A stretch of 32,113 bases of DNA. Source: a virus. Taxonomy: Duplodnaviria > Caudoviricetes. How positions within the stretch are numbered: position 1 is the first letter of the stretch; each line of letters starts with the position of its first letter. Made by a program: the position numbers and the translations under genes. Shown piece after piece: positions 1-28,929 of the stretch. The stretch is taken from IMG/VR virus record IMGVR_UViG_3300022697_000100, positions 1 to 32,113 of that record; one strand, 5' to 3'. Below the pieces are notes generated by a model, which made no database searches, was not told where the DNA came from, and was given only the letters and a program-made list of their open reading frames with translations.

Positions 1-35
1 TTTTCATATCTATCCTCTCTCTAGTTAATCTGGGG

Positions 36-203
36 TTATTTATCGTCTACTATTATTTTTTCTAGATGACCCAAAAAATCAATCAGCATGGCGTTATCTG
101 TGGATTTCCGTCCCAGCTGATTTATCATGTGCAGAATTTCTTCTCGACTGAAACATATTCGCTTCGTGTCGCCGCCCTCTATTGTTGAATATTTGACTTT
201 CAT
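36..203 (-). CDS. small hypothetical phage protein (55 aa, MKVKYSTIEGG...IIVDDK)
   Basis: Translated by hand; ATG preceded by AGAGAGGATAGAT RBS; fills the gap below the ORF-track size cutoff. Another ORF starts at 7 and runs off the left edge with the same RBS. Confidence 0.7.
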   Translation of the reverse strand: MKVKYSTIEGGDTKRICFSREEILHMINQLGRKSTDNAMLIDFLGHLEKIIVDDK

Positions 204-222
204 ATCTATCCTCTCTTGTGGG

Positions 223-471
223 TTAGCACAGTTTAATTAATTTCATAATACCTCGCCCTTTTAGGCCTTTCCTGCTGATGAATTTCCCCGTTCCCGGCCA
301 AAAGTCGATCATTCCGTTACGGCCCTCTACGATCAAGTGAGCGCCACCGTTTTTAGATACATAAGAGATTTCTCGTTTATCTAAAATTGGTAATGCGTTA
401 TCACGATTGTTGCCACGCCTTAATTTACTGTCTTCGGTCATCTCTCGGAATACTTTGCCCATGTCACCCAT
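223..471 (-). CDS. hypothetical phage protein (82 aa)
   Basis: ORF with GGAGG RBS; NGGAHLIV and IDFWPGTG motifs resemble a common small phage family. Confidence 0.8.
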   Translation of the reverse strand: MGDMGKVFREMTEDSKLRRGNNRDNALPILDKREISYVSKNGGAHLIVEGRNGMIDFWPGTGKFISRKGLKGRGIMKLIKLC

Positions 472-500
472 ATCTATCCTCCTATGTTAAACATCATTAA

Positions 501-1115
501 TTAATCTACGAATTTCACCAACCTATTTTCTGTAAAATGTCCTTCTCTTCCATGCACTCCTGCTGAAATTATTCTTAGAAACTGCCTGTTAATATCTTTT
601 TTAACAGGAATGCTTTCATGCGGGGTGAGTATCCCTATCTCATGCACCTCTCCTGATTTCATAAAATGGGCCTCAGAATATGGGTAGTTTCTTGAAAGGT
701 GGCCGATATCGCCGTCTTCACTAGTATCCTCATGTTCCGCATCCCACAAAGCACAGCTGTCATCTAAATTATTGGCTAACAAAATGCCCACGTCCGCATC
801 TAATGTTACTTGGTGGCTTTTACCCCACCCACCACCACCCCATACATAAGTTTTGTTTGGTATGCGCCCAACTTCGGTATGCAATGCTCGTTTTGTTTTC
901 GCCCTATCCCCGCGATGCGGTAATCCTTTTTTCACTAAAGACTCGTCTATTGTTAAATATCCAATATCGCCGCGCTTGAAATAGCATGATTCTATAATTT
1001 CTTCATAACCATCTCTATATTCGACCGGCACAGATGCCGGGTCGCCTTGTATATATGGCATCATCAGGCACCGGATTCCAGTGAACTGTGGTAAAGTTAT
1101 TTTGCTAATTTGCAT
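501..1115 (-). CDS. putative 2OG-Fe(II) dioxygenase-like (DSBH) protein
   Basis: HxE (LHTE), distal His (TPHES) and RxxxR-like strand (RQFLR) in the order expected for the DSBH fold; AGGAG RBS. Confidence 0.55.
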   Translation of the reverse strand: MQISKITLPQFTGIRCLMMPYIQGDPASVPVEYRDGYEEIIESCYFKRGDIGYLTIDESLVKKGLPHRGDRAKTKRALHTEVGRIPNKTYVWGGGGWGKSHQVTLDADVGILLANNLDDSCALWDAEHEDTSEDGDIGHLSRNYPYSEAHFMKSGEVHEIGILTPHESIPVKKDINRQFLRIISAGVHGREGHFTENRLVKFVD

Positions 1116-1142
1116 ATTCTCTCTCCTATTGTTGGTTAAACA

Positions 1143-2639
1143 TCATTGCGCCCTTTTCGGGGCTTGGGAATTCTTTATATTTAAGTGTTTTATATAACTC
1201 ATCGTTTCGTATGACGGAGATAGTGACCTTACATTACTATGATGGTTTGGCCATACTCCATATCGCTCCTTATATTTATGTGCTGACCATCCATCCTTGA
1301 ATGACCGTGATTCTGCGTAGCCTTTCAGCTCTGCGTAAAATTTCCTTTTTTGTTCTGTAGAGTGTTTTTTATTTAGCTTCTTTTTTACCTTACCGTTGTC
1401 TTGAATGCGAACCAATTTACCATTAACGTATTCTATTCCTGGCTCAGGTGTTGGCGTAAACCCACACTTAGGACACGTCCGGCTACCTTCTTTTTTAGCT
1501 CCACATATATGCCCGTTTTTATCTCTTGCAGAACATTGCGCCGGTTCTTTTTTCTCATACTCTGCTCTTTGAGATATAGGCTTATCACCCTTGTCTAATT
1601 CGTCCGTAGTTTCGTCAGTATTAAAACCGAGTTGCGCTCTATTCCCCGCCATATCTATAATTGTGCAAAATTCCTTTCCAGGATAAGAACGAATCCCCCG
1701 CCCCCAAAATTGAATGTGCCTAATCAGTGATTTAGTGGGAGCTGCGAAGATTAGTTTTGTGCAATTCGGTAAATCTATTCCTATAGATAATTTAAAGACG
1801 CTCGACAGTACTTGCAGCTCCCCCGCTTTGAACATGTCAATAATCCCGCCCTTCATGTACATCTTTTGTACGGGTGTTTTATAGTCGACGTGATACGCCT
1901 TCACGCCTCGAGCAACCAGCCGGTCAACGATATTGATACTGTCTGCACAATTAATAGCCGATATCATCGTTTGGTCGTTTGGGCATATTTCAAAAAATTG
2001 GTCGACTACTTCACCAACCCTTTTGGCGGTTACTTCTCCAAGCTGCTTTTGGTTGTACTCACCTGCGACGATACCAACCGCCTCGAGGTCTGGCGCGCTT
2101 GGCTCCCAAATATCACTTGGCGTTAATCTACCCAATTCAATTAGATTCGATGTGCTTGGCCCTTTAATGATGGTTTCGTAATATCCCGCCTTACCAAGCC
2201 CCTTGGACCACGGCGTTGCAGATAATCCCGCGAATAGAACATTGTTGTACGTCTCCATTAATCGTTTGTCATACGCCCTTAGAACGTGAGCTTCATCCCG
2301 AATGATTAAATCTACATCAGGTAAGCGAGGCAGCTTTTCTATGCTCTGCACGCTGGCAACTAATATTTCCGGATTACTATCACCGCGTCGACCCTGCTGA
2401 ATAATTGCCACACGTGAACCAAGTTTCGAGAATGATTGTGCCGCTTGTTCACACAAGGCTATTTTGTCGCAGAGGAAAAGCACCTTTTTGTTCTTCTTAA
2501 TGGCGGATCGAAATATCATATTAGATATGAACGTTTTCCCACCACCGCAAGGAAGCTGAATCATTGGCCGCCTTACCCCTTGCCGGTAGGCTTCTCGAGT
2601 ATCCTCAACAACCTTTTCCTGATATTCATACGGCTTCAT
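1143..2639 (-). CDS. SF2 DNA helicase (YejH/RadD-like) with C-terminal Cys4 zinc finger
   Basis: Q motif PYEYQ, Walker A PCGGGKT, DEAH, SAT, IQFWGRGIR; C-terminal CxxC pairs. Start placed at the ATGA overlap with the upstream stop (2636-2639). Confidence 0.92.
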   Translation of the reverse strand: MKPYEYQEKVVEDTREAYRQGVRRPMIQLPCGGGKTFISNMIFRSAIKKNKKVLFLCDKIALCEQAAQSFSKLGSRVAIIQQGRRGDSNPEILVASVQSIEKLPRLPDVDLIIRDEAHVLRAYDKRLMETYNNVLFAGLSATPWSKGLGKAGYYETIIKGPSTSNLIELGRLTPSDIWEPSAPDLEAVGIVAGEYNQKQLGEVTAKRVGEVVDQFFEICPNDQTMISAINCADSINIVDRLVARGVKAYHVDYKTPVQKMYMKGGIIDMFKAGELQVLSSVFKLSIGIDLPNCTKLIFAAPTKSLIRHIQFWGRGIRSYPGKEFCTIIDMAGNRAQLGFNTDETTDELDKGDKPISQRAEYEKKEPAQCSARDKNGHICGAKKEGSRTCPKCGFTPTPEPGIEYVNGKLVRIQDNGKVKKKLNKKHSTEQKRKFYAELKGYAESRSFKDGWSAHKYKERYGVWPNHHSNVRSLSPSYETMSYIKHLNIKNSQAPKRAQ

Positions 2640-2995
2640 CGTAGTATTTTCCTCATCGTCCAATATTTGGCCCACTCTGATTTCGTTTTCTGTCCCTCTT
2701 GCGCCTCAAAAATGGCAATGTATATCTTGGCTTGCCCTTGTTCCTCTGCTCGTTTCTTGTCCGAATAGATCCTTTTTTGCTCAGGTGTGGCATCGGGCCA
2801 CAATCCCTGTGATTCCATAGCGGCTTTGATTTCGTAAAATTCACATCCTGATAGGCAATACACCAGCATCTTGCCGTCTCGGTCCGTGATACGCATCGAG
2901 GGGGACTTATCGTCATGGGCCACGCATTTCACCATCCAGCTCGTTTCGCTCTTACTGTGCGTTCCCAGTGCTTGGGCTATCTCATACGGTGTCAT
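2636..2995 (-). CDS. stand-alone primase-type CHC2 zinc-binding domain protein (no TOPRIM domain)
   Basis: CVAHDDKSPSM...YCLSGC matches the DnaG/P4-type zinc ribbon; only 119 aa. Confidence 0.85.
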   Translation of the reverse strand: MTPYEIAQALGTHSKSETSWMVKCVAHDDKSPSMRITDRDGKMLVYCLSGCEFYEIKAAMESQGLWPDATPEQKRIYSDKKRAEEQGQAKIYIAIFEAQEGQKTKSEWAKYWTMRKILR

Positions 2996-3036
2996 TTTAT
3001 CGGCTCTATTTTACGTGCACTAATCAACATGGTCAT
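2992..3036 (-). CDS. 14-aa leader peptide MTMLISARKIEPIK, coupled to the Zn-finger gene
   Basis: Strong GAGGAG RBS 8 nt upstream; TGA overlaps the ATG of 2995 (ATGA); the downstream gene lacks its own obvious SD. Confidence 0.6.
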   Translation of the reverse strand: MTMLISARKIEPIK

Positions 3037-3060
3037 TTTCTGATCTCCTCTTTTTTTTAA

Positions 3061-3380
3061 GCAAACGTCCGCTAGGGGTGGTAAGCCATTGATCTATAGG
3101 GTAACTATTCCTACCCCACATGCTGACTATCCCGAATGCCAATATCGCTTATGAATTAACCGCAATACCTACATCGCTCATAGAGTCACAGTTCAATCCA
3201 CAGTGGCCTAGTTGCAACGTCCTTTTATTGGCGGACGTTCCCACCCGTGTAACCACTGCTTATGCCATATACCCTGTGCAAGTTATGGCCAGCCTTCTGG
3301 TGGAATGTTGACCAGCGCTGTGTGTTTTCTTGTCGGCAGCCCATGCAGGCTCACTGTTAACGCAGACAGAACGCACAGAA
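3061..3380 (-). ncRNA. putative large structured RNA or ssDNA element upstream of replication genes
   Basis: No convincing ORF; dense nested inverted repeats (e.g. 3064-3072/3231-3239, 3201-3206/3253-3258, 3264-3269/3284-3289, 3318-3326/3370-3378), several extended by G-U pairs on the minus strand. Confidence 0.55.
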
Positions 3381-3406
3381 ATATGTGAGATTTTTTCATT
3401 AGGAAG

Positions 3407-3435
3407 TTACTACAAGGAAGGTTTTGCGTTATAAT
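3407..3435 (+). promoter_or_regulatory. sigma70-like promoter for an antisense RNA
   Basis: TTACTA-17 bp-TATAAT (perfect -10, weak -35). Confidence 0.5.
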
Positions 3436-3441
3436 TTCTGT

Positions 3442-3543
3442 AACGCGGTGGCCCTGAGTAGCCTTCGAGTCAGTGAGGTGTTAGAGCCTGCACTGGCAAT
3501 CTAATCTTAAGCCGCCCGCTAACTTTTAGCAAGCGGCTTTTTT
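3442..3543 (+). ncRNA. putative ~100-nt antisense sRNA (three stem-loops)
   Basis: Lies between a TATAAT promoter and a + strand terminator; internal hairpins GGC/GCC and CAGTG-AGGT-gttaga-GCCT-g-CACTG. Confidence 0.55.
3509..3543 (+). terminator. intrinsic terminator
   Basis: AAGCCGC-cc-GCTAA-ctt-TTAGC-aa-GCGGCTT ending in a T6 tract. Confidence 0.75.
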
Positions 3544-3791
3544 ATTGCTTTCTTACTCAAAATCTTCACCTCATTTAGTACAGCCGTTCTTACCTCTTTA
3601 AGGTAGGCTAATTCACTGGATTGCATGGCAATATCACGATCAATTCTAATTACCTTCTCCTTGATGAGGTTTAGGCGGCTCAGATGTAAACTAACAGCAT
3701 TAATCTCAAGATCCTTCTCGTGAAGAGCAGTTTCGTACTGTTCCGGCGGTATCTTTCTAAGTTCTTTTATAAGTTTGGCTTCTTTTTTCAT
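3519..3791 (-). CDS. hypothetical coiled-coil protein (90 aa)
   Basis: AAGGAG RBS before ATG at 3791; heptad-like helical sequence. Confidence 0.75.
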   Translation of the reverse strand: MKKEAKLIKELRKIPPEQYETALHEKDLEINAVSLHLSRLNLIKEKVIRIDRDIAMQSSELAYLKEVRTAVLNEVKILSKKAIKKPLAKS

Positions 3792-3807
3792 AAATAACTC
3801 CTTCACT

Positions 3808-3836
3808 AGAGGGCTTGCTGAGAAATCACAAGCCCG
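3808..3836. repeat. hairpin-forming repeat, copy 1 (AGAGGGCTTGC..AATCACAAGCCCG)
   Basis: Near-identical to 4920-4945; GGGCTTG/CAAGCCC stem just upstream of a minus-strand RBS. Confidence 0.85.
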
Positions 3837-3839
3837 TTT

Positions 3840-4088
3840 TTATTTCGGTATATTTGGCGTTTCATCTTCCTTCAATACATCCGGGTAGTTTAATGCTAGC
3901 CATGCAATACATAGGCGCTGAAAGTTTTCTTTGCTGATCCCATTGTCGTTTTTAACAATGACATCTAACATTCCAGGCCCGCTATCAGCAAACTCTATCC
4001 CAGACTGATCACCGACTCCTTTAAGATAATGATCATCGTCGATAATATAGAAAAGTGTTTCGCTGTCGAGTTCTACAATGTCACCCAC
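3840..4088 (-). CDS. hypothetical protein (MGDIVELD..., 82 aa)
   Basis: GTG start 2 nt after the upstream stop; the longer track ORF overlaps 4091..4306. Confidence 0.6.
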   Translation of the reverse strand: MGDIVELDSETLFYIIDDDHYLKGVGDQSGIEFADSGPGMLDVIVKNDNGISKENFQRLCIAWLALNYPDVLKEDETPNIPK

Positions 4089-4090
4089 CG

Positions 4091-4306
4091 CTAATGGTAA
4101 TTTTTTGGAATAATAAAGCTTGCTCGTTGTGGTGTGGCATCTGGCGAGCAATAAAAATATAGCGGCCACCATCTACCAAAGCAGCGTAAAGGAATTCTGA
4201 AACAGACATAGCCCCAGCGTTTAGTAGAGATGTTCACAGCCCAATGCATTGCATTTCGGCCATATATGGTTATGTTTAATATGTTTATGTGGCCGTCTAA
4301 ATCCAT
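4091..4306 (-). CDS. Trp/aromatic-rich hypothetical phage protein (71 aa)
   Basis: ORF with AGGA RBS; NAMHWAVNI..RWGYVCFR..WWPLYFY sequence looks conserved-like. Confidence 0.7.
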   Translation of the reverse strand: MDLDGHINILNITIYGRNAMHWAVNISTKRWGYVCFRIPLRCFGRWWPLYFYCSPDATPQRASFIIPKNYH

Positions 4307-4324
4307 ATTTTCATCCTAAAAGAT

Positions 4325-4352
4325 TTGAATTACATCAGGGAAATGCTAAAAT
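4325..4352 (+). promoter_or_regulatory. sigma70-like promoter (extended -10)
   Basis: TTGAAT-16 bp-TAAAAT with TGn. Confidence 0.55.
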
Positions 4353-4357
4353 AGGAG

Positions 4358-4467
4358 GGTGTTGCTGAAGTGATTGTTCCCGTTTAACATTTCGCAAGAT
4401 GTCGGTAAAACATCGTTGCAACTCAATAATTATAGGCGCTTGGATTAAAACTTCAAGCGCCTTTTTT
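4358..4467 (+). ncRNA. putative ~110-nt antisense sRNA
   Basis: Intergenic, between promoter and terminator; long imperfect hairpin GTTGC...GCAAC. Confidence 0.5.
4434..4467 (+). terminator. intrinsic terminator
   Basis: AGGCGCTTG/CAAGCGCCT stem ending in a T6 tract on +. Confidence 0.75.
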
Positions 4468-4468
4468 A

Positions 4469-4660
4469 TTATATGAGGTGCTTGGGATCTATCCCGGAAC
4501 ACTCAAAACAAACCATCGGCCCGTCGCCAAGTGGCGACATACAATATAGCTCGTAATCAACTTTTTTCTTACAACCCATACAAGTATATTCGTCGATATA
4601 ATCATCGGCTAATTTTTCAATTCTAGAACTCATCAATTCTACTGGGTCTGGTATATACAC
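4469..4660 (-). CDS. small CxxC-CxxC zinc-finger protein
   Basis: CMGC and CFEC; GTG start with AAGGGG RBS. Confidence 0.75.
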   Translation of the reverse strand: MYIPDPVELMSSRIEKLADDYIDEYTCMGCKKKVDYELYCMSPLGDGPMVCFECSGIDPKHLI

Positions 4661-4704
4661 TTTATTCCCCTTTTCGGTTATTAAGACAGCCCCTGGTTAG
4701 GGGG

Positions 4705-4902
4705 TTATTGCCACTTAAATTTATCACCCAGCTCAAGACGTCTCTGTTTAAATCCCTCGTAATACGCTAGATCTTCCGCACAGTCATTAGGATCACCCGT
4801 GTCAGGATAAGCGCGATTATAGACACCGTTCCCTGCGTCTTTTCGGCCTTCATCTCGATACCCTGCCATAATGTTACTCCACCATTTATCTGTATCGTCC
4901 AT
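4705..4902 (-). CDS. hypothetical protein
   Basis: ORF with GAGGA RBS; exact start uncertain (4902 or 4911). Confidence 0.7.
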   Translation of the reverse strand: MDDTDKWWSNIMAGYRDEGRKDAGNGVYNRAYPDTGDPNDCAEDLAYYEGFKQRRLELGDKFKWQ

Positions 4903-4919
4903 TTTATTCATCCTCAATC

Positions 4920-4945
4920 AGAGGGCTTGCCGAATCACAAGCCCG
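4920..4945. repeat. hairpin-forming repeat, copy 2
   Basis: AGAGGGCTTGCcgAATCACAAGCCCG; matches 3808-3836 except in the loop. Confidence 0.85.
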
Positions 4946-4987
4946 GTTTGGTGGTGGAAGGCCGGATACTCTCCATTGGTTAGTAGG

Positions 4988-5191
4988 CTATGTGCCTTCG
5001 TAATACTGCTGCTCTTCTTCGGTTAATTCCTTGCTGTAAATATAATGCTCTATGTCCTGTTGTTTAAAAACCGATATTCCACTATATATACGGACATAAA
5101 CTTCGTACGTGTTATCTCCCCAGCATTTAACGACAACGCCAATCTGATCATTATTAACAATTACTATATTTCCGAATGTAAATTTACTCAT
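4988..5191 (-). CDS. small beta-barrel (SH3/KOW-like) hypothetical protein
   Basis: MSKFTFGNIVIV..IGVVVK pattern; GGAGAGGG RBS. Confidence 0.65.
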   Translation of the reverse strand: MSKFTFGNIVIVNNDQIGVVVKCWGDNTYEVYVRIYSGISVFKQQDIEHYIYSKELTEEEQQYYEGT

Positions 5192-5636
5192 ATACCCTCT
5201 CCTTCCGCCAATTCTTATAATCAGCGGGGTTGAAATTAATACTACTTTCACACGATAGTTTGAATGCCGCCCTAAAGTGCATCGCCGATCTAAATGCATG
5301 TAGCTCCATGTCAGGTGTTATTTTATCAATCTTTCCCACCCAGAACTTGCGGCTTCGTTTCTTCCCGTCATCTACCCATGGCGCTTGATATACGACGCTG
5401 CGGGTATCTCTGCGCTTGTCGTGCTCAATGCTGCGGTAAACACGTACAGATTTCATTTCCGTAGCACCCAAAGAAATTAACATTTGATCACGCCAATGCT
5501 TAGCGGCCACAAGAGACTTGATTTTATTCCCCCACTGCTTATGCGCAAAGGTACGGCTAAACTCGCTCTTGTTGCGCACTATGCGAACCTGGTATTCGTA
5601 TTTATTGGGTTCGGTTATGTGTCTGTGCTCAGCCAT
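5184..5636 (-). CDS. AP2-like DNA-binding domain protein
   Basis: YQVRIVRN..FSRTF..AAKHWRD, plus a second similar unit; AAGGAG RBS. Confidence 0.6.
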   Translation of the reverse strand: MAEHRHITEPNKYEYQVRIVRNKSEFSRTFAHKQWGNKIKSLVAAKHWRDQMLISLGATEMKSVRVYRSIEHDKRRDTRSVVYQAPWVDDGKKRSRKFWVGKIDKITPDMELHAFRSAMHFRAAFKLSCESSINFNPADYKNWRKERVYE

Positions 5637-5799
5637 TTTCAATCTCCTTAATTTGCTCTAATGCGTCTTTTTTGCTTGCCGCTGTTCCAGCTAATCCGTT
5701 GCGGCCGTCGTGGTCATCGTGCCAGAAATCGTAATCGTAGCCCCTATATGGTACAGGTTTTGGGGCATATTCTATGTGCCAGCCGGCTGGTGGTTTCAT
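5629..5799 (-). CDS. small hypothetical phage protein (56 aa, MKPPAGWHIEYAPKP...YDFWHDDHDG)
   Basis: Hand-translated; ATGA-coupled to the upstream gene. Confidence 0.75.
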   Translation of the reverse strand: MKPPAGWHIEYAPKPVPYRGYDYDFWHDDHDGRNGLAGTAASKKDALEQIKEIENG

Positions 5800-5993
5800 G
5801 GTTTATTTTTACTCTCAAAGCTACCCGGTAAAATAGCCTTATCTCTAAATACAGTCGAAACAGGCATTTTGTCGTGGCGAGCTTTAGTAGTGAATTTACA
5901 ATCAGGATAAGTAGAGCAACCGAAGAAGTCGCCATACTTACCCTTTTTGCGTATTAGTTCTGCTTTACACTTTGGGCATTGGTCGGTAGCCAT
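5796..5993 (-). CDS. topoisomerase-I-type C4 zinc finger protein (stand-alone)
   Basis: CPKC..LIRKKGKYGDFFGCSTYPDC matches zf-C4_Topoisom. Confidence 0.85.
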   Translation of the reverse strand: MATDQCPKCKAELIRKKGKYGDFFGCSTYPDCKFTTKARHDKMPVSTVFRDKAILPGSFESKNKP

Positions 5994-6130
5994 TATTGAT
6001 CGTATTTAAAATATTCAGGATCATATCCCTTGTTTTTTATAAATAGTTCTATCTCATTTATTGAGTCAAACGATCCATAGTACTGCCAACATTCAGCGCA
6101 ATGTGACCATGCATACAATTTTATCTTCAT
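5993..6130 (-). CDS. small hypothetical protein (45 aa)
   Basis: Hand-translated MKIKLYAWSHCAECW...; GAGGGGG RBS; TAATG coupling. Confidence 0.65.
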   Translation of the reverse strand: MKIKLYAWSHCAECWQYYGSFDSINEIELFIKNKGYDPEYFKYDQ

Positions 6131-6154
6131 TCTTCCCCCTCTAGGCGTAAGCTG

Positions 6155-7003
6155 TTAAGTGGTACTTCGGTCAACGTTTGGATTTAATGCCACGGCATCC
6201 TTTGCTACCGCCGACCATTCGTTGCTTTTAAGTTTGGCTACTTCCTTCGTGGTAAAAATACCGCCGCTTGTTGGCGCGAGCTTAATAGATACCGCTTCCT
6301 TATTAGTTAACGAATAGTATGCTTCTGCTGCTGCCAAATAATCACCATCCGCCAGTCTATCTTTAACTTCCTCAATAACTTCCTTATGTCGATAACAGGC
6401 CATACCGTATTTAATCCCGATAGCCTTCCCTTCATCCAATATGCTCTGTATGTATTCTCTTTGTCCGGATGTTTGAGCATCGTCATCTTCATTATCGATG
6501 CATAAATTAAATATCATTTTAATTAGATATCTTTGCCCATACGATGTAGTTGAAGCGGTAGCATGTATGGTCGTTTTATTTACTTTTCCCATTATCCCGG
6601 CCTGATCCAAAGGCAGATCAAAATGATATTTCTTTACATGCCCTTTCTCATGCATAACATCGCAGATAATCCGTATATAGCTATCCATTAGGGCTTCTTC
6701 AGTGCCAAACGAAAGAGAAAACCCATGCATTGTATACACTGGGGTAACTTGCTCATTAATAGCCCCCAGATCCGCATACATGCTGCCTGTCTGCTTATTC
6801 TCCTTAGTCTTGATGATTTTAGGCATCTCTGATTGAGCGAGCCTCATAGCCTTGTTGTAAGCTTGCTCCGCTTCAGATTTCATTATCCGTTCTTGAAGAT
6901 CCATCAGCTTGGTCAATGCGTCAGGATCAGCCCCTTTTTCTACAGCAGACTCCAATATAGAAAATACATTAAAGTCTTTCACTGTTTGTATTTCGTTTTC
7001 CAT
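6155..7003 (-). CDS. erf: ERF-superfamily single-strand annealing protein
   Basis: YADL..I..V.P....HGFS segment and ASTTSYGQRY (GSxxTYxxRY-like) motif. Confidence 0.85.
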   Translation of the reverse strand: MENEIQTVKDFNVFSILESAVEKGADPDALTKLMDLQERIMKSEAEQAYNKAMRLAQSEMPKIIKTKENKQTGSMYADLGAINEQVTPVYTMHGFSLSFGTEEALMDSYIRIICDVMHEKGHVKKYHFDLPLDQAGIMGKVNKTTIHATASTTSYGQRYLIKMIFNLCIDNEDDDAQTSGQREYIQSILDEGKAIGIKYGMACYRHKEVIEEVKDRLADGDYLAAAEAYYSLTNKEAVSIKLAPTSGGIFTTKEVAKLKSNEWSAVAKDAVALNPNVDRSTT

Positions 7004-7011
7004 AGTAGCCC

Positions 7012-8061
7012 CTAATATTTAATTGATACGTTTGAGATAATCCCTTTGGCGATAGCTATAACAACATCTTTTGCCTGTTCTTTATTTAGCCCAATAGCCA
7101 TAAAATCCTTTATGCACTGATTGTTAATTTTCGCGCAGTGACGCTTATTAGCCTCGCGCTTTTCTTGAGCTTCTTTGTCAGCTTTGGCCTGCTGCTCCAC
7201 ACGATCTTTTTCTTGCTGTACCGCTAATTCTGTATCACGTATAGCTTGCTGCTTTAGCGCTTCTTCACGTCTTTCTGCCGCTGCTTTTTCGTCAATTAAA
7301 CGCTGCTCAGCGTCCTCCTTTTCCTTTTTTTCTGTGGATATTTTGTCGGCGGCATCCTGTTCTGCTTTTACTCTAGCCTCTTCAGCGACACGTTCAGCTT
7401 CTTCCTTTGCTTCTTTGGCGGCTAGATCAACACGTTCCTGCTGCGCCCTTTCAGCGGCCTCAGCTTGTAATCTCAATAGCTCCGCCTTCTCCGCGTCTGC
7501 TTTTTCTTGCATCGAAAGAAGCCCGGACAATTTGAGAACAACTTCGTCCTTTCTCATTCGGGCCATTTCTTCCATTTCCATTAGGGTGTCGTCTATGGGG
7601 AATTTGAAGGCGGTGGCGAGCAGTGATCTAATGTCAGCTGCGGACATGTCGCCAACTGATATTGCTATAATCCCGCCCTTGAAAGGATCGATATCGTTGA
7701 CGCGCTTTAGAATGAAGTCTTTGCGTTTTTTTTCGTCGGCTTCCCATTTAGTTAAAGGCGAGCGAATATCTTCTTCTAGGGCGTCCAGGTAATCCCGTGC
7801 GCGCTTCCCTTCAGCGTCGGCTATTTTTGGTTGCCGCTTTAGGTCTGTTACATATTCTTTCCGTATGCCGTCAATATACGTTTTGGAGCGCTTGATTTTG
7901 TAGCACAGCGTCGCTATCTCCTTGCGGCTTTTGTCTGTACTAAGGTCCGGCACAAATGACCGGGCCTTTTCATTGATGCTCGCCAAAATCCCCGATAGCC
8001 CATCAGCCACAAATACTTCAATAGGGTTTATTTTTTCCTGCGTTATTAGTGTTTTTTCCAT
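7012..8061 (-). CDS. conserved phage coiled-coil protein (E/K/A-rich)
   Basis: N-terminal VPDLST.K.RKEIA..KI.RSKT motif and long charged coiled coil; commonly next to phage recombinases. Confidence 0.8.
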   Translation of the reverse strand: MEKTLITQEKINPIEVFVADGLSGILASINEKARSFVPDLSTDKSRKEIATLCYKIKRSKTYIDGIRKEYVTDLKRQPKIADAEGKRARDYLDALEEDIRSPLTKWEADEKKRKDFILKRVNDIDPFKGGIIAISVGDMSAADIRSLLATAFKFPIDDTLMEMEEMARMRKDEVVLKLSGLLSMQEKADAEKAELLRLQAEAAERAQQERVDLAAKEAKEEAERVAEEARVKAEQDAADKISTEKKEKEDAEQRLIDEKAAAERREEALKQQAIRDTELAVQQEKDRVEQQAKADKEAQEKREANKRHCAKINNQCIKDFMAIGLNKEQAKDVVIAIAKGIISNVSIKY

Positions 8062-8071
8062 GATTTCTCCG

Positions 8072-8284
8072 TTATCTAAGATTAATAGTCTCTTTGTAAA
8101 CCAGCTTGATAATTACATCGCTGATCGTTCGGCCTAATTTTCTGCCAAAATATGTGTAGAATCCTTTTTCGTATAAAAGAAGTGACGGGGCATAACCTAG
8201 CTTGCACATGGTTCTTTTAAGTATTTCCCGCTGATATTTAAACTGCTCAATACAAGATACTTTTCTGTCTAGTTCGATTATCAT
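8072..8284 (-). CDS. hypothetical protein
   Basis: ATGA-coupled ORF in the operon. Confidence 0.6.
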   Translation of the reverse strand: MIIELDRKVSCIEQFKYQREILKRTMCKLGYAPSLLLYEKGFYTYFGRKLGRTISDVIIKLVYKETINLR

Positions 8285-8655
8285 GACTTCTTCTCATCAT
8301 TCAGCACCATCCGCATATCTCGTGTCATAGCACACAACATCCGTCTGGACTTCTCGATTTCTTTTGGCTCCCTTTCTATCGTGATAGCGTAGAAATAATC
8401 CTCGGCATATTCGGTTAGCGTATGAGCAGCTCCATCTAGGTTGGATATGTGACCCAGCGCGGCACACACTATTTCCCATGAGTTTCCGTACGGCATTAAC
8501 GCAAGCATCCTTTTAAGGTCGGCGACCGGCTTTATGTCAGTTGAGTGCGGTAACGAATAAGGGGGTATCTCTGGCTTGGTAATTTTCGTTTTGAATCCCA
8601 TTATCAGTTTACCTAACGTAATCATCTCTGGGGGTAAGTTGTTTGCTTCTTTCAT
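8281..8655 (-). CDS. hypothetical protein, first gene of the leftward operon
   Basis: GGAG RBS before ATG at 8655; no repressor features. Confidence 0.7.
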   Translation of the reverse strand: MKEANNLPPEMITLGKLIMGFKTKITKPEIPPYSLPHSTDIKPVADLKRMLALMPYGNSWEIVCAALGHISNLDGAAHTLTEYAEDYFYAITIEREPKEIEKSRRMLCAMTRDMRMVLNDEKKS

Positions 8656-8688
8656 TTGAATCTCCGGTGTTTGTGTAGTTGATGACAA

Positions 8689-8718
8689 ATAATAGCAAGT
8701 AACTTACTGACTTGTCAA
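8689..8718 (-). promoter_or_regulatory. leftward early promoter
   Basis: TTGACA-18 bp-TATTAT with TGn. Confidence 0.75.
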
Positions 8719-8741
8719 GGCGATCACTGTAAGTTTTATAC

Positions 8742-8770
8742 TTGCATTGCAATTAATCCACTGCTATTAT
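8742..8770 (+). promoter_or_regulatory. rightward promoter
   Basis: TTGCAT-17 bp-TATTAT with TGn; predicted +1 falls at the ATG at 8778. Confidence 0.7.
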
Positions 8771-8777
8771 TGATCAC

Positions 8778-9044
8778 ATGAATAAATTATCTGAAAAACA
8801 AAGGGAAATACAGATCGCTGCTATTAATAGAGTGGTTAAATCAGTCGGCGGTAGGACAGCGCTATCTAAGGTTGTCTCTAAGAACACTGGGGAGGACTTT
8901 AAGGCGTATAGGATAGATGACTACCTTAAGCAGAGTATGCCGCCGCCTGGAGCTTGGGCGCTGTATATCGCAGCAGACAGAAGGGTTCCTTTGCATTTAT
9001 TAGATCCGCTTAACTATGACAAAAAGAAAGTGAGGCCAGTATGA
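8778..9044 (+). CDS. Cro/YdaS-like HTH regulator
   Basis: AINRVVKSVGGRTALSKVV...VPLHLLDP pattern; first gene after the divergent promoter. Confidence 0.7.
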   Translation: MNKLSEKQREIQIAAINRVVKSVGGRTALSKVVSKNTGEDFKAYRIDDYLKQSMPPPGAWALYIAADRRVPLHLLDPLNYDKKKVRPV

Positions 9045-9280
9045 CAAAGAAAAAGACAATCACAATGAGGGTGTCAGTCCATCCGATCAAAGCCAATCTC
9101 TGGAAGCAGGGTATTTTAGGTAAAATTAAGCCAGACATGTCTCTACGCCAAATCGGGGCTTTGATAGGAGAGAATAGGGCGCAGGTAATACAGCATCACT
9201 TGCAGAAAATGGTAGCCATGGGTTCAATTGATATTGTTCGCGGGCAATATATTTTTCCTAAATCAGACGGCAAGGAGTGA
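9041..9280 (+). CDS. LexA-like winged-helix DNA-binding protein without peptidase domain
   Basis: SLRQIGALIG....QVIQHHLQKMVAMGSI resembles LexA DBD helices 2-3. Confidence 0.65.
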   Translation: MTKKKTITMRVSVHPIKANLWKQGILGKIKPDMSLRQIGALIGENRAQVIQHHLQKMVAMGSIDIVRGQYIFPKSDGKE

Positions 9281-9287
9281 GGCCAGT

Positions 9288-9482
9288 ATGAGCGACACAA
9301 ATAAAAAATTAACGCTCGGTTATTTTCGAGATATCACTAAAGATTTACCAGACTCAACATTAATAACAGAAGGTGATTATGACGAGTCAAATTTAACGTC
9401 GTTTGAAAAACAGCTAGTAAGAGACGCGCAATTCGTAAAATTCATACCTACGAGGGTTTTGCAAGAATCTGAGGATGAGTAG
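9288..9482 (+). CDS. hypothetical protein
   Basis: GAGG RBS, ATG at 9288. Confidence 0.7.
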   Translation: MSDTNKKLTLGYFRDITKDLPDSTLITEGDYDESNLTSFEKQLVRDAQFVKFIPTRVLQESEDE

Positions 9483-9516
9483 CAAGGGGAATCGGGGCAA
9501 TTAGTGGAGTACAGCC

Positions 9517-9753
9517 GTGAAATCAGAAATTATTTATATAGGCGAGGCAGGAAAGGATCAGTTCGGGCATTACAGGGTAAATGTTAGATGCACAGGAAAC
9601 GAAGAAGGATGTCGGAACGAGTACACGATAGACAGGCAGGCGCTTAAATTTCAACTAACCTGCGGGCCTTGTTGCCGAGAAAGGAAAAAGCGGCCCAAGG
9701 TTGATCTTCGTGATGACTTTGAAGCAAATACTATGGCGAATATGAAATGGTAA
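9517..9753 (+). CDS. Cys-rich hypothetical protein
   Basis: GTG start with GGAG; C..C..CGPCC. Confidence 0.7.
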   Translation: MKSEIIYIGEAGKDQFGHYRVNVRCTGNEEGCRNEYTIDRQALKFQLTCGPCCRERKKRPKVDLRDDFEANTMANMKW

Positions 9754-9766
9754 AGGGGATAATACA

Positions 9767-10069
9767 ATGAATTGCTACATATGCGACATAAACAGCGGTG
9801 ACGAAAATCACTGCGAAACATGCAGGTTTGAAGTATACCCAATTCAGGAATGGATGGAGGAGGCCACTGGCGATCCAATGTGGACTGGAAGCAATATCCC
9901 GTTTTTGGAAATCAATAAGGATCACTCTAAAATGATTAGCGGGTTTATCGCTGGCGGGCAAATGCCGTTTAAATTGATAGATATAGGTGCCGGGCTTGGT
10001 TGTCTTACAAGATTGGTTAGGGCTGATGTTCCTGAATTTACGTATCTGCCATTCAAAATGGTCAAATAA
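9767..10069 (+). CDS. hypothetical protein with N-terminal CxxC-CxxC
   Basis: ORF with AGGGG RBS. Confidence 0.65.
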   Translation: MNCYICDINSGDENHCETCRFEVYPIQEWMEEATGDPMWTGSNIPFLEINKDHSKMISGFIAGGQMPFKLIDIGAGLGCLTRLVRADVPEFTYLPFKMVK

Positions 10070-10103
10070 AATGGAGTTAACCGCGGCACAAGGGAGTCAA
10101 TCA

Positions 10104-10259
10104 ATGAGTTACTTAATGTTGTGTGAGCACAAAAACACAAAAATGAAACTGACTTCTTGGGCGACATGGTGCAAAGGGCGTCATAACCAAGGATTTATTT
10201 ATAAGATGTGCTGCAAGACATGCGGCGCAATAGTGAACAAGAGAGCCGGTAAGGATTAA
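10104..10259 (+). CDS. small Zn-ribbon protein (CxH..CxxC)
   Basis: GGGAG RBS; CEHK...CKTCG. Confidence 0.6.
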   Translation: MSYLMLCEHKNTKMKLTSWATWCKGRHNQGFIYKMCCKTCGAIVNKRAGKD

Positions 10260-10280
10260 CATGTCATTCAGAATGATCTT

Positions 10281-10511
10281 ATGAAAGGAATCCTTACCCT
10301 GTTTTATGGATTCATTCTATTCTTGTTCGGAGGCGCTATATTTCAAATAATAGAGAGCAATGAAATGGAATCAAATGGTTATGACTGCAAGATAAAACAG
10401 ATAAAGACAGGGCCACTATCTCATAACATAAGTAAATTCTACTACTGCAAAAAGAACGATGAATTAGTAGTAGTAGGATTTTACGGGAGGCACTTATCTC
10501 TTTCAGAATGA
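10281..10511 (+). CDS. small membrane-anchored protein
   Basis: N-terminal hydrophobic helix; ATGA coupling at both ends; flanked by a 12-bp direct repeat. Confidence 0.7.
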   Translation: MKGILTLFYGFILFLFGGAIFQIIESNEMESNGYDCKIKQIKTGPLSHNISKFYYCKKNDELVVVGFYGRHLSLSE

Positions 10512-10912
10512 TCAAGAACGCAGGCAAGTTGGGGCCGTATGCAGAGGAGGATAGACAGGCGTTCTCAGCCTATGCAGATGGTACGGTGTTTGAGGTTGGG
10601 GATGGGAAGGAAGATCGGCAGAGGACTATCCCGCAAAACAACTCTATGTATCTGTATGAACGACGACTAGCTAATGATTTAAATGATTCCGGGCAAGAAA
10701 TAAAACGGGTAATCGAAAAGAAGTCTCAAGATGTCCCGTGGAGACAAGAATCGATACATTGCTTGATTTGGGTCCCGGTACAAGAGGCGATAATACAAGA
10801 AGTATCGTCAACAAAGCTTACTACAGTAAATATGACCAGAGTATACAACGTTGTCAGTAGAAATATGTCGCAGCTATTTGGTGTTAATACTGAATGGCCT
10901 AGTAACCGATAG
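10508..10912 (+). CDS. ninB: NinB/Orf-like recombination accessory protein
   Basis: RTIPQN motif, SSTKLT..M and C-terminal GV..WP characteristic of the NinB family. Confidence 0.7.
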   Translation: MIKNAGKLGPYAEEDRQAFSAYADGTVFEVGDGKEDRQRTIPQNNSMYLYERRLANDLNDSGQEIKRVIEKKSQDVPWRQESIHCLIWVPVQEAIIQEVSSTKLTTVNMTRVYNVVSRNMSQLFGVNTEWPSNR

Positions 10913-10921
10913 GAAATTAAA

Positions 10922-11137
10922 ATGTGGCATTATCGAGTAATAGAAACCACCAAAGGCAGCGATACATTTCTCGGAATACATGTGGTTCACTATGATGATG
11001 ATGGCTGGGTTGAGTACGTGGCAGAAAATCCGGCTAAGATTATCTGGACGGCGGCCGATGGTGACGGTAAAGAGATTCTAAAAATGATGGCGTTAGCATT
11101 CGATAAGCCCGTATTGAAAGCGAGCGATTTTGAATAG
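10922..11137 (+). CDS. conserved phage hypothetical protein
   Basis: MWHYRVI...IHVVHYDDDG...AFDKPVL pattern. Confidence 0.8.
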   Translation: MWHYRVIETTKGSDTFLGIHVVHYDDDGWVEYVAENPAKIIWTAADGDGKEILKMMALAFDKPVLKASDFE

Positions 11138-11161
11138 ATGGGTAACCGATAAGGGGATTGT

Positions 11162-11392
11162 ATGAGGTATTTTGTATTTTACTACATTTACACCGATGAA
11201 TATAACAGACAAGGCTGCGGGTTTATTCCTCTAGTTAAACCCAAAGGGTTTCCGTCGAGCAAAGAAATCAGGAAAGAAGTAAGGCATTGCGCTGTAGCTA
11301 GCGAAGTAGTTCTAACAGGATTCAACGAGTTCAAAAGCGAGCAAGACTATTTGGATTTCACGGGCAAGGCTGTTAAGGAGCTAGGGGAATGA
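11162..11392 (+). CDS. hypothetical protein
   Basis: AAGGGG RBS; operon context. Confidence 0.75.
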   Translation: MRYFVFYYIYTDEYNRQGCGFIPLVKPKGFPSSKEIRKEVRHCAVASEVVLTGFNEFKSEQDYLDFTGKAVKELGE

Positions 11393-11622
11393 GTGGCGAA
11401 ATGAGAATGAAGCGAATCGAAAGATTGCTTGATGATTTAAGATATGAGGTGGAGCGTGGGTTTATGGAAAATGAAATCGAGGAATGCATCGGCTTTGAAT
11501 TTATTGTACCTGTGAGCCGAAAAATAACGAATGGTATGATTTTATGTAGATTTGAGACCAAGCCAATAGATGCTAGGTACGCGGCACTACAACCCCGTAA
11601 ACTAAAATTAGTTAAGAAATGA
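11389..11622 (+). CDS. hypothetical protein
   Basis: ATGA-coupled ORF. Confidence 0.75.
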   Translation: MSGEMRMKRIERLLDDLRYEVERGFMENEIEECIGFEFIVPVSRKITNGMILCRFETKPIDARYAALQPRKLKLVKK

Positions 11623-11825
11623 GTAACCACAGCCAATGCAGAGTTAATTGTGGCGGGACTGATTGCCCGGTTCTCGCATACGCCATTCCTGTTTATGATT
11701 ACAAGGAATCTGCAATCATGCGTATTAAATTACAGCCATTTTTTGGAAGCTTGGTTGCAGCAGAACCTAAAACATGCCGGGTCACATTACACACAATGGT
11801 AACGACTCATAACTATGACTCATAA
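11619..11825 (+). CDS. hypothetical protein
   Basis: ATGA-coupled ORF. Confidence 0.5.
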   Translation: MSNHSQCRVNCGGTDCPVLAYAIPVYDYKESAIMRIKLQPFFGSLVAAEPKTCRVTLHTMVTTHNYDS

Positions 11826-12006
11826 AACGGACATAATCACCGCCAAGCCCGTGTATTGCCGCGACTGCGAGTTTTTCAGCTTAGAGCCACCCAGCCCAGA
11901 CTTGGGAGTGTGTTCGGAGAAGGTTGGGAGTCACCCATTTAAGTTCAAGGACGATATGAAGGTGTGTGAGACGTTTGAGGTCAAGCAAGATGAAGTCGAT
12001 TCTTAG
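11815..12006 (+). CDS. Cys-rich small protein
   Basis: CRDCEFF..GVC..C.TF motif. Confidence 0.7.
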   Translation: MTHKTDIITAKPVYCRDCEFFSLEPPSPDLGVCSEKVGSHPFKFKDDMKVCETFEVKQDEVDS

Positions 12007-12190
12007 ATCCTGGAATGGCTCGGCTATCCAAGCGTGTCTTTTCAAGCAGGGTAGTCAGTATGGTTTTTGGTTCCGTATTTTGGGCCATGGTGTTTCTATA
12101 TCTAATCAGACGCTGTTGTTTTCTGAGCGTGAAGGGATTACGAAAGTGTTACGGATATTTAATATTAAAATTAAGAGGCTAAAACCATAA
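11990..12190 (+). CDS. hypothetical protein
   Basis: FWFRI.GHG.SI..LFSEREG pattern; last rightward gene. Confidence 0.65.
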   Translation: MKSILRSWNGSAIQACLFKQGSQYGFWFRILGHGVSISNQTLLFSEREGITKVLRIFNIKIKRLKP

Positions 12191-12193
12191 GGG

Positions 12194-12496
12194 CTAGCAC
12201 CCGTCAGAACCTGGCGACACATGGCGAATACGCTCGCACTGCTTTGCAATAGAAACTTTAATATCACTAATATCTAAACCTAGATTTCCAATGCCAGCAC
12301 TGTGTATTTTCAACATATCGGCGTTAATGGCCTGCTTGGTTATCGTCCCATTAATGTCTAAGCGCATGTCGATCAAAGTATCATTTAAATTACTAAAAGA
12401 AGTTAAAGCAAATGTTGATACTATAGACATAATCGCGATAGCTAGCGACATCAAGCCAGGAATAAGGTACTTCTCGTATTTGTTTTTATTGGCCAT
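12194..12496 (-). CDS. membrane protein with coiled coil (possible holin/lysis accessory)
   Basis: One hydrophobic helix followed by heptads; TAATG-coupled to the tailspike. Confidence 0.55.
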   Translation of the reverse strand: MANKNKYEKYLIPGLMSLAIAIMSIVSTFALTSFSNLNDTLIDMRLDINGTITKQAINADMLKIHSAGIGNLGLDISDIKVSIAKQCERIRHVSPGSDGC

Positions 12497-28682: not shown

Positions 28683-28929
28683 CTATTTTACCCTTGAACC
28701 TTGGTATTATGTCTTGCTCTATTCTGTATTTTACTCTAATACTCGTTTCTGATGTAAAATTAGGCATTATTTCTATTTCTGTGTCCCATCTTGCGTAGAT
28801 GTTTGGTGCTATAACGACCGGCGGAATAACGACTACCCCGATTGTATACCCTCGGGTAACTACATCTCCAACCGTTCCAATTAATGTTCCGTTACTAAAT
28901 CCCCGCGTTACAACTAGCGCGATAGACAC
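28675..28929 (-). CDS. hypothetical structural protein with duplicated VVTRG(F/Y)
   Basis: GTG start overlapping the upstream TAG; internal repeat. Confidence 0.7.
   Translation of the reverse strand: MSIALVVTRGFSNGTLIGTVGDVVTRGYTIGVVVIPPVVIAPNIYARWDTEIEIMPNFTSETSIRVKYRIEQDIIPRFKGKIDG

Follow-up and report, generated by a model that had tools for sequence, protein, structure and literature searches.

A candidate RNA-based replication origin under antisense control in a P22-like podovirus, in the slot of an initiator gene and its iterons

How does a tailed phage start replicating its DNA when its replication module holds neither an initiator gene nor a catalytic primase? The question is raised by a stretch of 32,113 nucleotides (nt), IMG/VR record IMGVR_UViG_3300022697_000100, hereafter the window, in which a non-coding tract with facing predicted promoters at its upstream end is followed, in the leftward direction, by a stand-alone primase-type zinc-finger gene and a superfamily 2 (SF2) helicase gene. 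It is tentatively proposed here that replication starts from this tract by means of an RNA kept in check by an antisense RNA, and that the tract occupies the place that an initiator gene and iterons take in related loci. The facing-promoter cassette probably gives antisense control of whatever starts replication; that the structured domain behind it does the job of initiator and iterons has about an even chance, most simply as RNA, by means of an R-loop and a primer. Since the support comes from the exchange of initiators for tracts in related loci, and not from the zinc finger or from the fold of the window tract, the original prediction of an RNA-controlled replicon at this locus was partly confirmed as an observation and partly supported as an interpretation, on other grounds than those it had given.

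Exchange of initiators and tracts beside related helicases

The window helicase combines ResIII/DEAD and Helicase_C domains (phrog_16) with a C-terminal Cys4 motif and a phage-specific C-terminal domain, for which an Atlas search returned no name. It is of the Eru1A type, sharing 28-34% identity with the helicases of Eru1, PS-1, YA3, Fels-1 and Vibrio phage 1.148.O. The family was sampled through the best 80 of 585 confirmed viral loci, from a scan covering 20 of 64 parts that points to an estimated 2,000 or so such stretches; in these 80 loci a TOPRIM primase is adjacent in 52, a stand-alone zinc finger in 11 and neither in 17. Among 82 loci with at least 900 nt of upstream sequence, a set that includes the window, named phages and near-duplicates, an initiator profile matched in 33 of the 53 TOPRIM loci, in one of the 13 zinc-finger loci and in 4 of the 16 others.

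Many Eru1A-type loci have a similar facing-promoter cassette with two hairpins, which is followed either by a short initiator gene (HTH_36, DUF1376 or RepL) with iterons or by a long non-coding tract. The initiator loci carry iterons and an AT-rich stretch, as in L121 and L093. When loci with at least 1,200 nt of upstream sequence were counted and 15 near-duplicates dropped by hand, tracts of at least 350 nt were present in 16 of 34 loci without a detected initiator and in 4 of 32 with one (Fisher p 0.003), these counts being phylogenetically non-independent, with 11 of the 13 zinc-finger loci in one clade. The masking of open reading frames (ORFs) used for this count is crude and misses the known tracts of L128, L112, L003 and L139, and L090 was scored as initiator-less despite a PHROG 'replication protein' match and is probably misclassified. 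In the helicase tree, L162 (with a tract) and L121 (with an initiator) are sisters, and a clade with support 99 unites L149, L112 and L139, all of the tract type, with L118, L136 and L148 of the initiator type; because the two types alternate among close helicases, those helicases are not obviously their own initiators. The cassette also precedes DUF1376/HTH initiators in L110, L118, L119, L129, L136 and L148, about 540-650 nt before the helicase, where it is probably a plasmid-style counter-transcript control of phage initiators. The pattern pointed out in the original prediction, in which a helicase module lacking an initiator combines an antisense/sense RNA pair with a long structured tract, recurs in this way in the helicase family, with sizes that resemble those of MRB and ColE1 origins.

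The gene right after the tract varies (a helicase, a PD-(D/E)XK nuclease, phrog_18407 or unknowns), so that a free-standing element fits better than a dedicated translational leader. Were the tract such a leader and nothing else, its fold, switched by the counter-transcript, would gate translation of an ORF of 14 amino acids (aa) and of the coupled zinc-finger and helicase genes, following the logic of CopA/Tap, of the repABC counter-transcript RNA (ctRNA) or of IsrK/orf45, and helicase and zinc finger would then act as an N15 RepA-like initiator on a DNA origin. In class-1 loci the cassette lies 60-100 nt before the initiator genes, so its default job is probably expression control; in the window the strong Shine-Dalgarno (SD) sequence belongs to the 14-aa ORF, the zinc-finger start has none, and ATGA overlaps at 2995-2992 and 2639-2636 chain the 14-aa ORF, the zinc-finger gene and the helicase gene. 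According to PMC4889955, the SF2 helicases of N15 and PY54, fused to primase, are confirmed replicative helicases, and IsrK works through an upstream ORF and alternative folds as described in PMC4825925. A leader would leave unexplained, however, why a conserved and covarying structure of 250-400 nt stands exactly in the loci without initiator and iterons, why different genes can follow it and why sister helicases need an initiator. No leader peptide was seen in the analogous tracts of relatives, which lend no support to the Tap-like peptide that the original prediction had counted as a design element, and this explanation is considered rather unlikely.

Structured tract families and the place of the window tract

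The zinc-finger clade carries, upstream of the SF2 helicase and zinc-finger genes, an element of 330-490 nt. In the families termed alpha and beta it consists, from 5' to 3', of a sense promoter, a closed domain of about 75 nt with a variable-loop hairpin, an antisense promoter, a multi-stem domain, a G/A run and an SD; the multi-stem domain measures 250-400 nt and has two exchangeable 3' forms behind one common 5' block. Members are L128, L132, L133, L141, L146, L147, L160, L164, L166, L024 and L173-L195 (except L180 and L182), examples being L177:730-1103 and L147:1009-1412, and a motif scan for the element gave 21 of its 23 matches inside the clade and two by chance. In all 18 elements scored, most of them from one clade, the sense promoter falls in the top 2.5% and at a fixed distance; the antisense promoter lies 6-7 nt from the closing stem and in the top 3.5% in 15 of the 18, being weak in one and further off in two. 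Hairpin 1 has a varying loop on a stem that is held, as is expected for incompatibility loops.

The beta alignment has 12 sequences, in which 99.6% of cells are paired. Both sides changed in 19 of its 68 pairs, against 9.7 in shuffles, with 0 of 500 shuffles reaching this value and slid controls at 3-5; since this alignment, whose members are related, also served to derive the structure, the outcome is not to be read as a p-value. The same pairing would equally fit single-stranded DNA (ssDNA), covariation being unable to tell RNA from ssDNA, and the tract could in that case be a structured DNA origin, merely unwound by transcription, with ssDNA hairpins recognised by the zinc finger, the helicase and host or phage primase. 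G4, ssi and pas-like signals are a model for a structured ssDNA origin, and the partner proteins, a primase zinc-binding domain or a full primase, are readers of ssDNA. Loops of the UNCG/GNRA type and many G-U pairs on the transcribed strand of the family tracts argue for RNA instead, and tract length and multi-branch fold exceed what is known of ssi signals; a DNA origin of this kind is regarded as improbable.

Rfam gave no match for 22 alpha/beta and related loci. Likenesses to motifs of RNase P, group I and group II introns and the hammerhead ribozyme were set aside, being neither conserved across members nor matched in Rfam. An intron-like or ribozyme RNA, mobile or catalytic, that had settled in the slot with no role in replication would agree with the large multi-branch fold and with the fact that one 5' block can be followed by either the alpha or the beta 3' domain. 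The missing Rfam match, the several unrelated sequence families found in one slot and the way tract presence tracks initiator absence speak against such an RNA, which is held to be very improbable.

Other initiator-less loci have tracts unrelated to alpha and beta, namely the gamma family (L149, L112, L162) and L139, L163, L154, L009, PS-1 and YA3; the structured tracts L149:400-900, L112:4470-4920, L162:3960-4420 and L139:1300-1860 follow a cassette of the kind described above, and their loci have a full TOPRIM primase but lack an initiator. A gamma motif scan returned 17 loci, four of them true and none a new member, which leaves three distinct gamma sequences in all, and the gamma covariation counts were not used because the alignment contained the chance locus L333. 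A scan of the genome collection with the cassette motif returned 120 loci, none matching the alpha/beta profiles. Of 11 tracts that were folded, five reached a z-score of -2 or lower and six did not.

Several further observations concern these tracts. At L085:780-1215 a diverged copy of the element, closed by a G-run and an A-run, is separated from its downstream helicase by 2.7 kb; on visual inspection L154, L163, L166, L131 and beta have G/A ends of a similar kind. In L147:1040-1140, L166:270-370, L173, L177 and L189 the second hairpin or loop of the 5' domain could pair with the linker that follows it, and inspection by eye shows changes in the two that match from locus to locus, which suggests an alternative fold. 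Tracts of 600-700 nt lie between cro-side genes and helicase in named Pseudomonas phages (L003:4372-4986 in PS-1, L004:4250-4980 in YA3, and L150-L152); those of PS-1 and YA3 fold at z -4.1 and -2.3, and the weight-matrix scan detected no facing promoter pair in tracts of this type (L003, L004, L150-L152). Strongly G-rich, strand-biased non-coding stretches precede the helicase in L006:4413-4621, L171:3560-3990, L172:3200-3440 and L111:4850-4950; they occur in enterobacterial Eru1-type and other phages and may be R-loop-prone origins.

The window repeats the alpha/beta layout, with predicted sense promoter, hairpin cassette, predicted antisense promoter, tract, A-run, SD and an initiator-less module of SF2 helicase and zinc finger. 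Its sense promoter aligns with those of the alpha/beta tracts, and its 5' half aligns colinearly with them when anchored on the promoters; the facing -10 boxes are 70 nt apart, against 76-110 nt in the relatives. When the window is scored with a position-specific scoring matrix of the alpha/beta central block, the site directly behind the antisense -35 box (3408-3349) comes 34th among some 64,000 positions; its score is negative, and the choice was made after the alignment had been seen. Homology of the window tract to alpha/beta is no more than hinted at by these similarities.

A number of results weigh against an RNA origin in the window, besides the limits given above with the tract counts, the beta covariation and the scoring matrix. 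The contig has no terminal repeat and its right end falls inside an open ORF; it is probably incomplete for these reasons, and an initiator or primase could sit in the missing part. The window tract was negative with the alpha, beta and gamma models in nhmmer and with covariance model R1, and it does not fold beyond chance: z is -0.6 for 3050-3420, -1.9 for 3050-3370 and -0.95 for 3040-3498, and 10 of 60 shuffles of 3050-3400 fold equally well, so that the roughly 320 nt of nested stems of the original prediction are not confirmed as exceeding chance (the family members L147, L128 and L166 also fold no better than shuffles). No DNA of close relatives came from scanning viral sequences with the helicase, A2, A1 or the zinc finger, the last of which returned one spurious locus, from a genome scan with A2 or from blastn of the tract against phages, and a metagenome scan gave distant zinc fingers only; the close relatives are known as proteins only (seven helicases, 48-63%; two zinc fingers, 55-72%), and in the tree the window helicase sits on a separate long branch with four proteins lacking DNA context, outside the main zinc-finger clade. 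There are also loci that combine a long tract with a full TOPRIM primase (PS-1, YA3, L149, L112, L162). Finally, because the cassette also stands before protein initiators, it proves regulation at most and not priming, and the claim that an antisense unit is specific to RNA priming is further undercut by a second such layout in the window, at 4325-4470.

The replication locus of the window

The phage is a P22-like podovirus, with P22-type portal, coat and scaffold proteins and a gp3-like small terminase in Pfam and PHROG scans, and the locus belongs to the last part of a long operon, read leftward, in which an Erf recombinase is encoded as well. Leftward, the gene order is tract, A8 run, SD, 14-aa ORF, zinc finger and SF2 helicase (Table 1), as had been read from the letters at the outset, ATGA overlaps and the absence of a TOPRIM or PrimPol domain included. 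The non-coding stretch, first put at about 500 nt, comprises 523 nt between 3519 and the zinc-finger start and holds no SD-supported ORF of at least 45 aa. The 14-aa ORF is likely to be a translational coupler; it starts about 400 nt from the predicted antisense target. In the CopA/Tap system of IncFII plasmids the antisense RNA blocks translation of the leader peptide. The absence of a lambda O/P-type initiator and of a catalytic primase was borne out in the incomplete contig: Pfam and PHROG searches of its 51 ORFs found no initiator, DnaB, archaeo-eukaryotic primase (AEP) or TOPRIM primase, and in a six-frame search of the contig with nine local profiles, including those four kinds, only the zinc-finger profile matched. 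No iteron-like repeats were found in the tract, no lambda O/P- or iteron-type initiator within the 32-kb contig, and no eroded initiator remnant in the six frames of the window.

Table 1. Features of the replication locus, in window coordinates
Feature	Position	Strand	Basis
SF2 helicase of Eru1A / PS-1 gp30 / Fels-1 type, 498 aa	1143..2639	-	Pfam, PHROG, comparison
Zinc-finger protein, 119 aa: stand-alone primase zinc-binding domain of CHC2 type, then two C-terminal helices	2636..2995	-	Profile, fold and Atlas matches
14-aa ORF with strong SD and ATGA overlap with the zinc-finger gene	2992..3036	-	Sequence
A8 run, then SD GAGGAG	A8 3051-3058, SD 3045-3050	-	Sequence
Non-coding tract ('domain B'), candidate origin/primer RNA	3059..3406	-	Occupies the slot of initiator gene and iterons in relatives
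Predicted antisense promoter, TTACTA-17-TATAAT	3407..3435	+	Weight-matrix rank 11 of ~64,000; absent from strict consensus scan
Two-hairpin target cassette between the facing -10 boxes	3435..3503	-	Folding, promoter positions
Predicted antisense RNA of ~104 nt: two hairpins (first weak) and terminator	3442..3545	+	Fold z -2.66; start inferred from promoter
Predicted sense promoter, TTGCTA-17-TAAGAT, inside the terminator hairpin, predicted start ~3497	3504..3532	-	Weight-matrix rank 82 of ~64,000; absent from strict scan
Hairpin and T6, predicted antisense-RNA terminator	3509..3543 (arms 3509-3522, 3526-3539)	+	Hairpin search; not listed by strict scan
Upstream 90-aa ORF without assigned function, 3' end overlapping the antisense terminator (OOP/cII-like geometry)	3519..3791	-	ORF list, Pfam/PHROG
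Second unit of facing promoters, three hairpins and terminator	4325..4470	.	Best-scoring facing pair in the window; 0.9 kb upstream, same operon

Promoters were scored with a weight matrix of our own, with sigma-70 weights, over the roughly 64,000 positions of the window. The promoter-to-terminator unit that the original prediction placed on the + strand stands in part: the hairpin with its T6 is real and the matrix ranks the promoter high, while a strict scan listed neither promoter nor terminator. The facing promoter on the - strand (3532-3504) had been missed in that prediction; the sense RNA predicted from it would run for about 450 nt up to the A-run. Facing promoter pairs alone are not rare, since 47 pairs scoring at least 7 occur in the window, among which the pair at the tract ties for fourth to fifth place. 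The region 3400-3550 folds at z -3.3, and 3 of 200 shuffles of the predicted antisense RNA fold as low as the RNA itself. The Rfam search of window positions 1-12,500, proposed with the original prediction, yielded two chance-level matches and no family; for C4, c4-a1b1 and isrK the window stays below threshold, and all three were detected in the control locus L002.

The position of the terminator raises the question of whether the + strand RNA acts on the upstream gene instead. According to PMC5869508, lambda OOP RNA overlaps 52 bases of the 3' end of cII, and the predicted antisense terminator of the window shares this geometry in overlapping the last 27 nt of the ORF 3791-3519, right before the replication genes. 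An OOP-like RNA would target the 3' end of this ORF, and the remainder of the tract, with no relation to the tract families, would be either ordinary spacer or what is left of a gene; the comparable second unit at 4325-4470 agrees with this, as does a window tract that folds like its shuffles and matches no family model. In a genome as compact as this one, however, 350 nt would be left without an explanation; the six-frame search found no remnant of an initiator, and the sense promoter and the anchored block fit the layout of the tract families; an explanation along these lines appears clearly unlikely.

Beside the locus, the unit at 4325-4470 is predicted to produce a + strand RNA of about 110 nt with three hairpins and a strong terminator, the - strand promoter again lying within the terminator hairpin, and the ORFs 4306-4091 and 4172-3840 come after it. 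Two related hairpins (3809-3845 and 4920-4950) are found at gene ends of the leftward operon, each right before the next SD. Divergent promoters at 8689-8778 separate the leftward operon from a rightward run of small ORFs, the site at 8689 on the - strand being the strongest of the window, and neither a CI-like repressor nor an integrase was detected in the contig. Two low-complexity proteins with no Pfam or PHROG match, of 591 aa (12496-14271) and of 916 aa (28929-31679, upstream of the terminase genes), are probably tail-fibre or spike-like.

The zinc finger matches the N-terminus of the primase family phrog_6088, CHC2 (PF01807) clusters of the Atlas and, by fold, primase N-termini; there is no direct Pfam match for the protein, no TOPRIM or AEP domain after it, and nothing at E 0.001 or better in a PDB fold search. 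The CHC2-type residues C24, H27, C47 and C51 are invariant or nearly so in the alignment, and the structure model, with a predicted local distance difference test score (pLDDT) of 87.7, has two C-terminal helices. Stand-alone zinc fingers of this type are common: the ORF ends within 182 aa in 30 of 71 metagenome loci fetched with the zinc-finger alignment, and Atlas clusters of them reach 661 members. Their neighbours are O-like or DUF1376 initiators with DnaB-type helicases, DUF3631 proteins and SF2 helicases, and in L093 a stand-alone zinc finger is placed behind an iteron initiator. Since the catalytic domain of the primase is also missing beside ordinary initiators, its loss says nothing on RNA priming; the argument that a missing TOPRIM domain implies an RNA primer was rejected, and the orphan zinc finger no longer serves as the pointer to RNA priming for which it had been taken. 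Primase-less modules made of an initiator, a stand-alone zinc finger and a DnaB-type helicase were observed in L011, L013, L018, L029, L032 and L034, and a zinc finger with DUF3631 in satellite-like elements in L002 and L031.

Known replicons and a possible mechanism

In order and sizes the locus resembles the MRB origins of the pB1067 type, which are Rep-less, about 500 bp long, and use a 68-nt RNA I with two stem-loops and an RNA II of at least 465 nt, with an inverted repeat flanked by A and T runs and with variable loops as specificity determinants, as described in PMC3035462; MRB plasmids also have an RNA I core of about 110 bp that is conserved in sequence. The layout and sizes predicted for the window match this description, and the setting differs, being a tailed phage in which SF2 helicase and zinc-finger genes follow the element. 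Like ColE1, the window is predicted to have convergent short and long transcripts, with a terminator hairpin at the 5' end of the long RNA and a purine or A-run at its 3' end; it differs in having no Rop and in the helicase and zinc-finger genes directly downstream. In ColE1, RNA II forms an R-loop primer that depends on PolI and RNase H. In a plasmid collection lacking the pB1067 record, the window and two family tracts matched only terminator-like or chance pieces of 24-32 nt. Against the ColE1 record NC_001371 the window gave no match at E 0.5 and the family tracts gave matches of 10-23 nt at E 0.03 or worse. Both outcomes also count against an RNA origin; short word matches to ColE1 RNA II were dismissed at these values, and the kinship with ColE1 drawn in the original prediction finds no sequence similarity to RNA I or RNA II behind it. 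The ColE1 sequence test having failed and no plasmid having matched, the window is filed under neither ColE1 nor MRB.

Among the c4, IsrK and P4 CI RNAs, CopA-Tap, repABC and OOP, we know of none with a structured domain of 250-400 nt that replaces an initiator. The c4, IsrK (PMC4825925) and P4 CI RNAs, CopA-Tap and the repABC ctRNA resemble the present case in that a small RNA with exposed variable loops stands beside a small ORF or a replication gene. The Eru1 unit of Shiga toxin (Stx) phages, with PS-1, YA3, Fels-1 and Vibrio 1.148.O, as presented in PMC8044961, shares with the window the SF2 helicase family and a module without O and P. Eru1-type phages have a Zn_Ribbon_Prim-DUF7146-Toprim_3 primase (Eru1B) downstream of the helicase, whereas beside the window helicase this adjacent TOPRIM primase is not present, and a zinc-binding domain only is found, upstream. 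The P4 alpha protein is a fused primase-helicase-origin-binding protein. RepA of N15 and PY54 (PMC4889955) is likewise an SF2 or primase-linked helicase serving as core replication protein, and differs from the window in being such a fused protein, the window having no catalytic primase.

For the window we infer transcripts, origin function, priming and a role of the zinc finger as follows. Host RNA polymerase would start at about 3497 and make an RNA of about 450 nt, the folded 3' part of which may stay hybridised to the template near its purine-rich end and the A8 run, opening the duplex; the hybridised RNA would then probably prime the leading strand, as ColE1 RNA II does. The counter-transcript of about 104 nt (~3442-3545) would pair with the two 5' hairpins and so keep the RNA from folding in this way, which would hold initiation down. 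Transcription continuing past the tract would provide for the 14-aa ORF, the zinc finger and the SF2 helicase. The helicase would enter where the duplex has been opened, and the lagging strand would be primed by the primase of the host, possibly with help from the catalytically empty zinc finger.

Over the helicase family, it is conceivable, and put forward with somewhat more reserve than the proposal for the window itself, that a widespread group of tailed phages with Eru1A-type helicases has repeatedly swapped initiator and iterons for a structured initiator RNA behind a plasmid-style antisense cassette, in several unrelated families absent from Rfam, the window phage having also lost primase catalysis. 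No phage replicon of this design was found in the literature searched, which mostly comprised papers outside subscription and no supplements. Large RNA-motif surveys might include these tracts. ColE1 and MRB plasmids are the only replicons started by an RNA that PMC3035462 (2010) names, and how MRB RNA II works is left open there.

Should the role of the RNA be limited to regulation, the alpha/beta tracts would still be RNA structures of phages that covary and have no Rfam match. If the proposal is true, RNA-initiated replication in the style of ColE1 and MRB, a strategy that we found described for plasmids only, would exist in phages, in a version exchangeable with protein initiators in one slot, which would offer natural swap experiments in which an RNA replaces an initiator. 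It would also explain how replication starts in phages that have no O or P and a helicase of this type, such as Eru1-type Stx phages, Fels-1, PS-1 and YA3.

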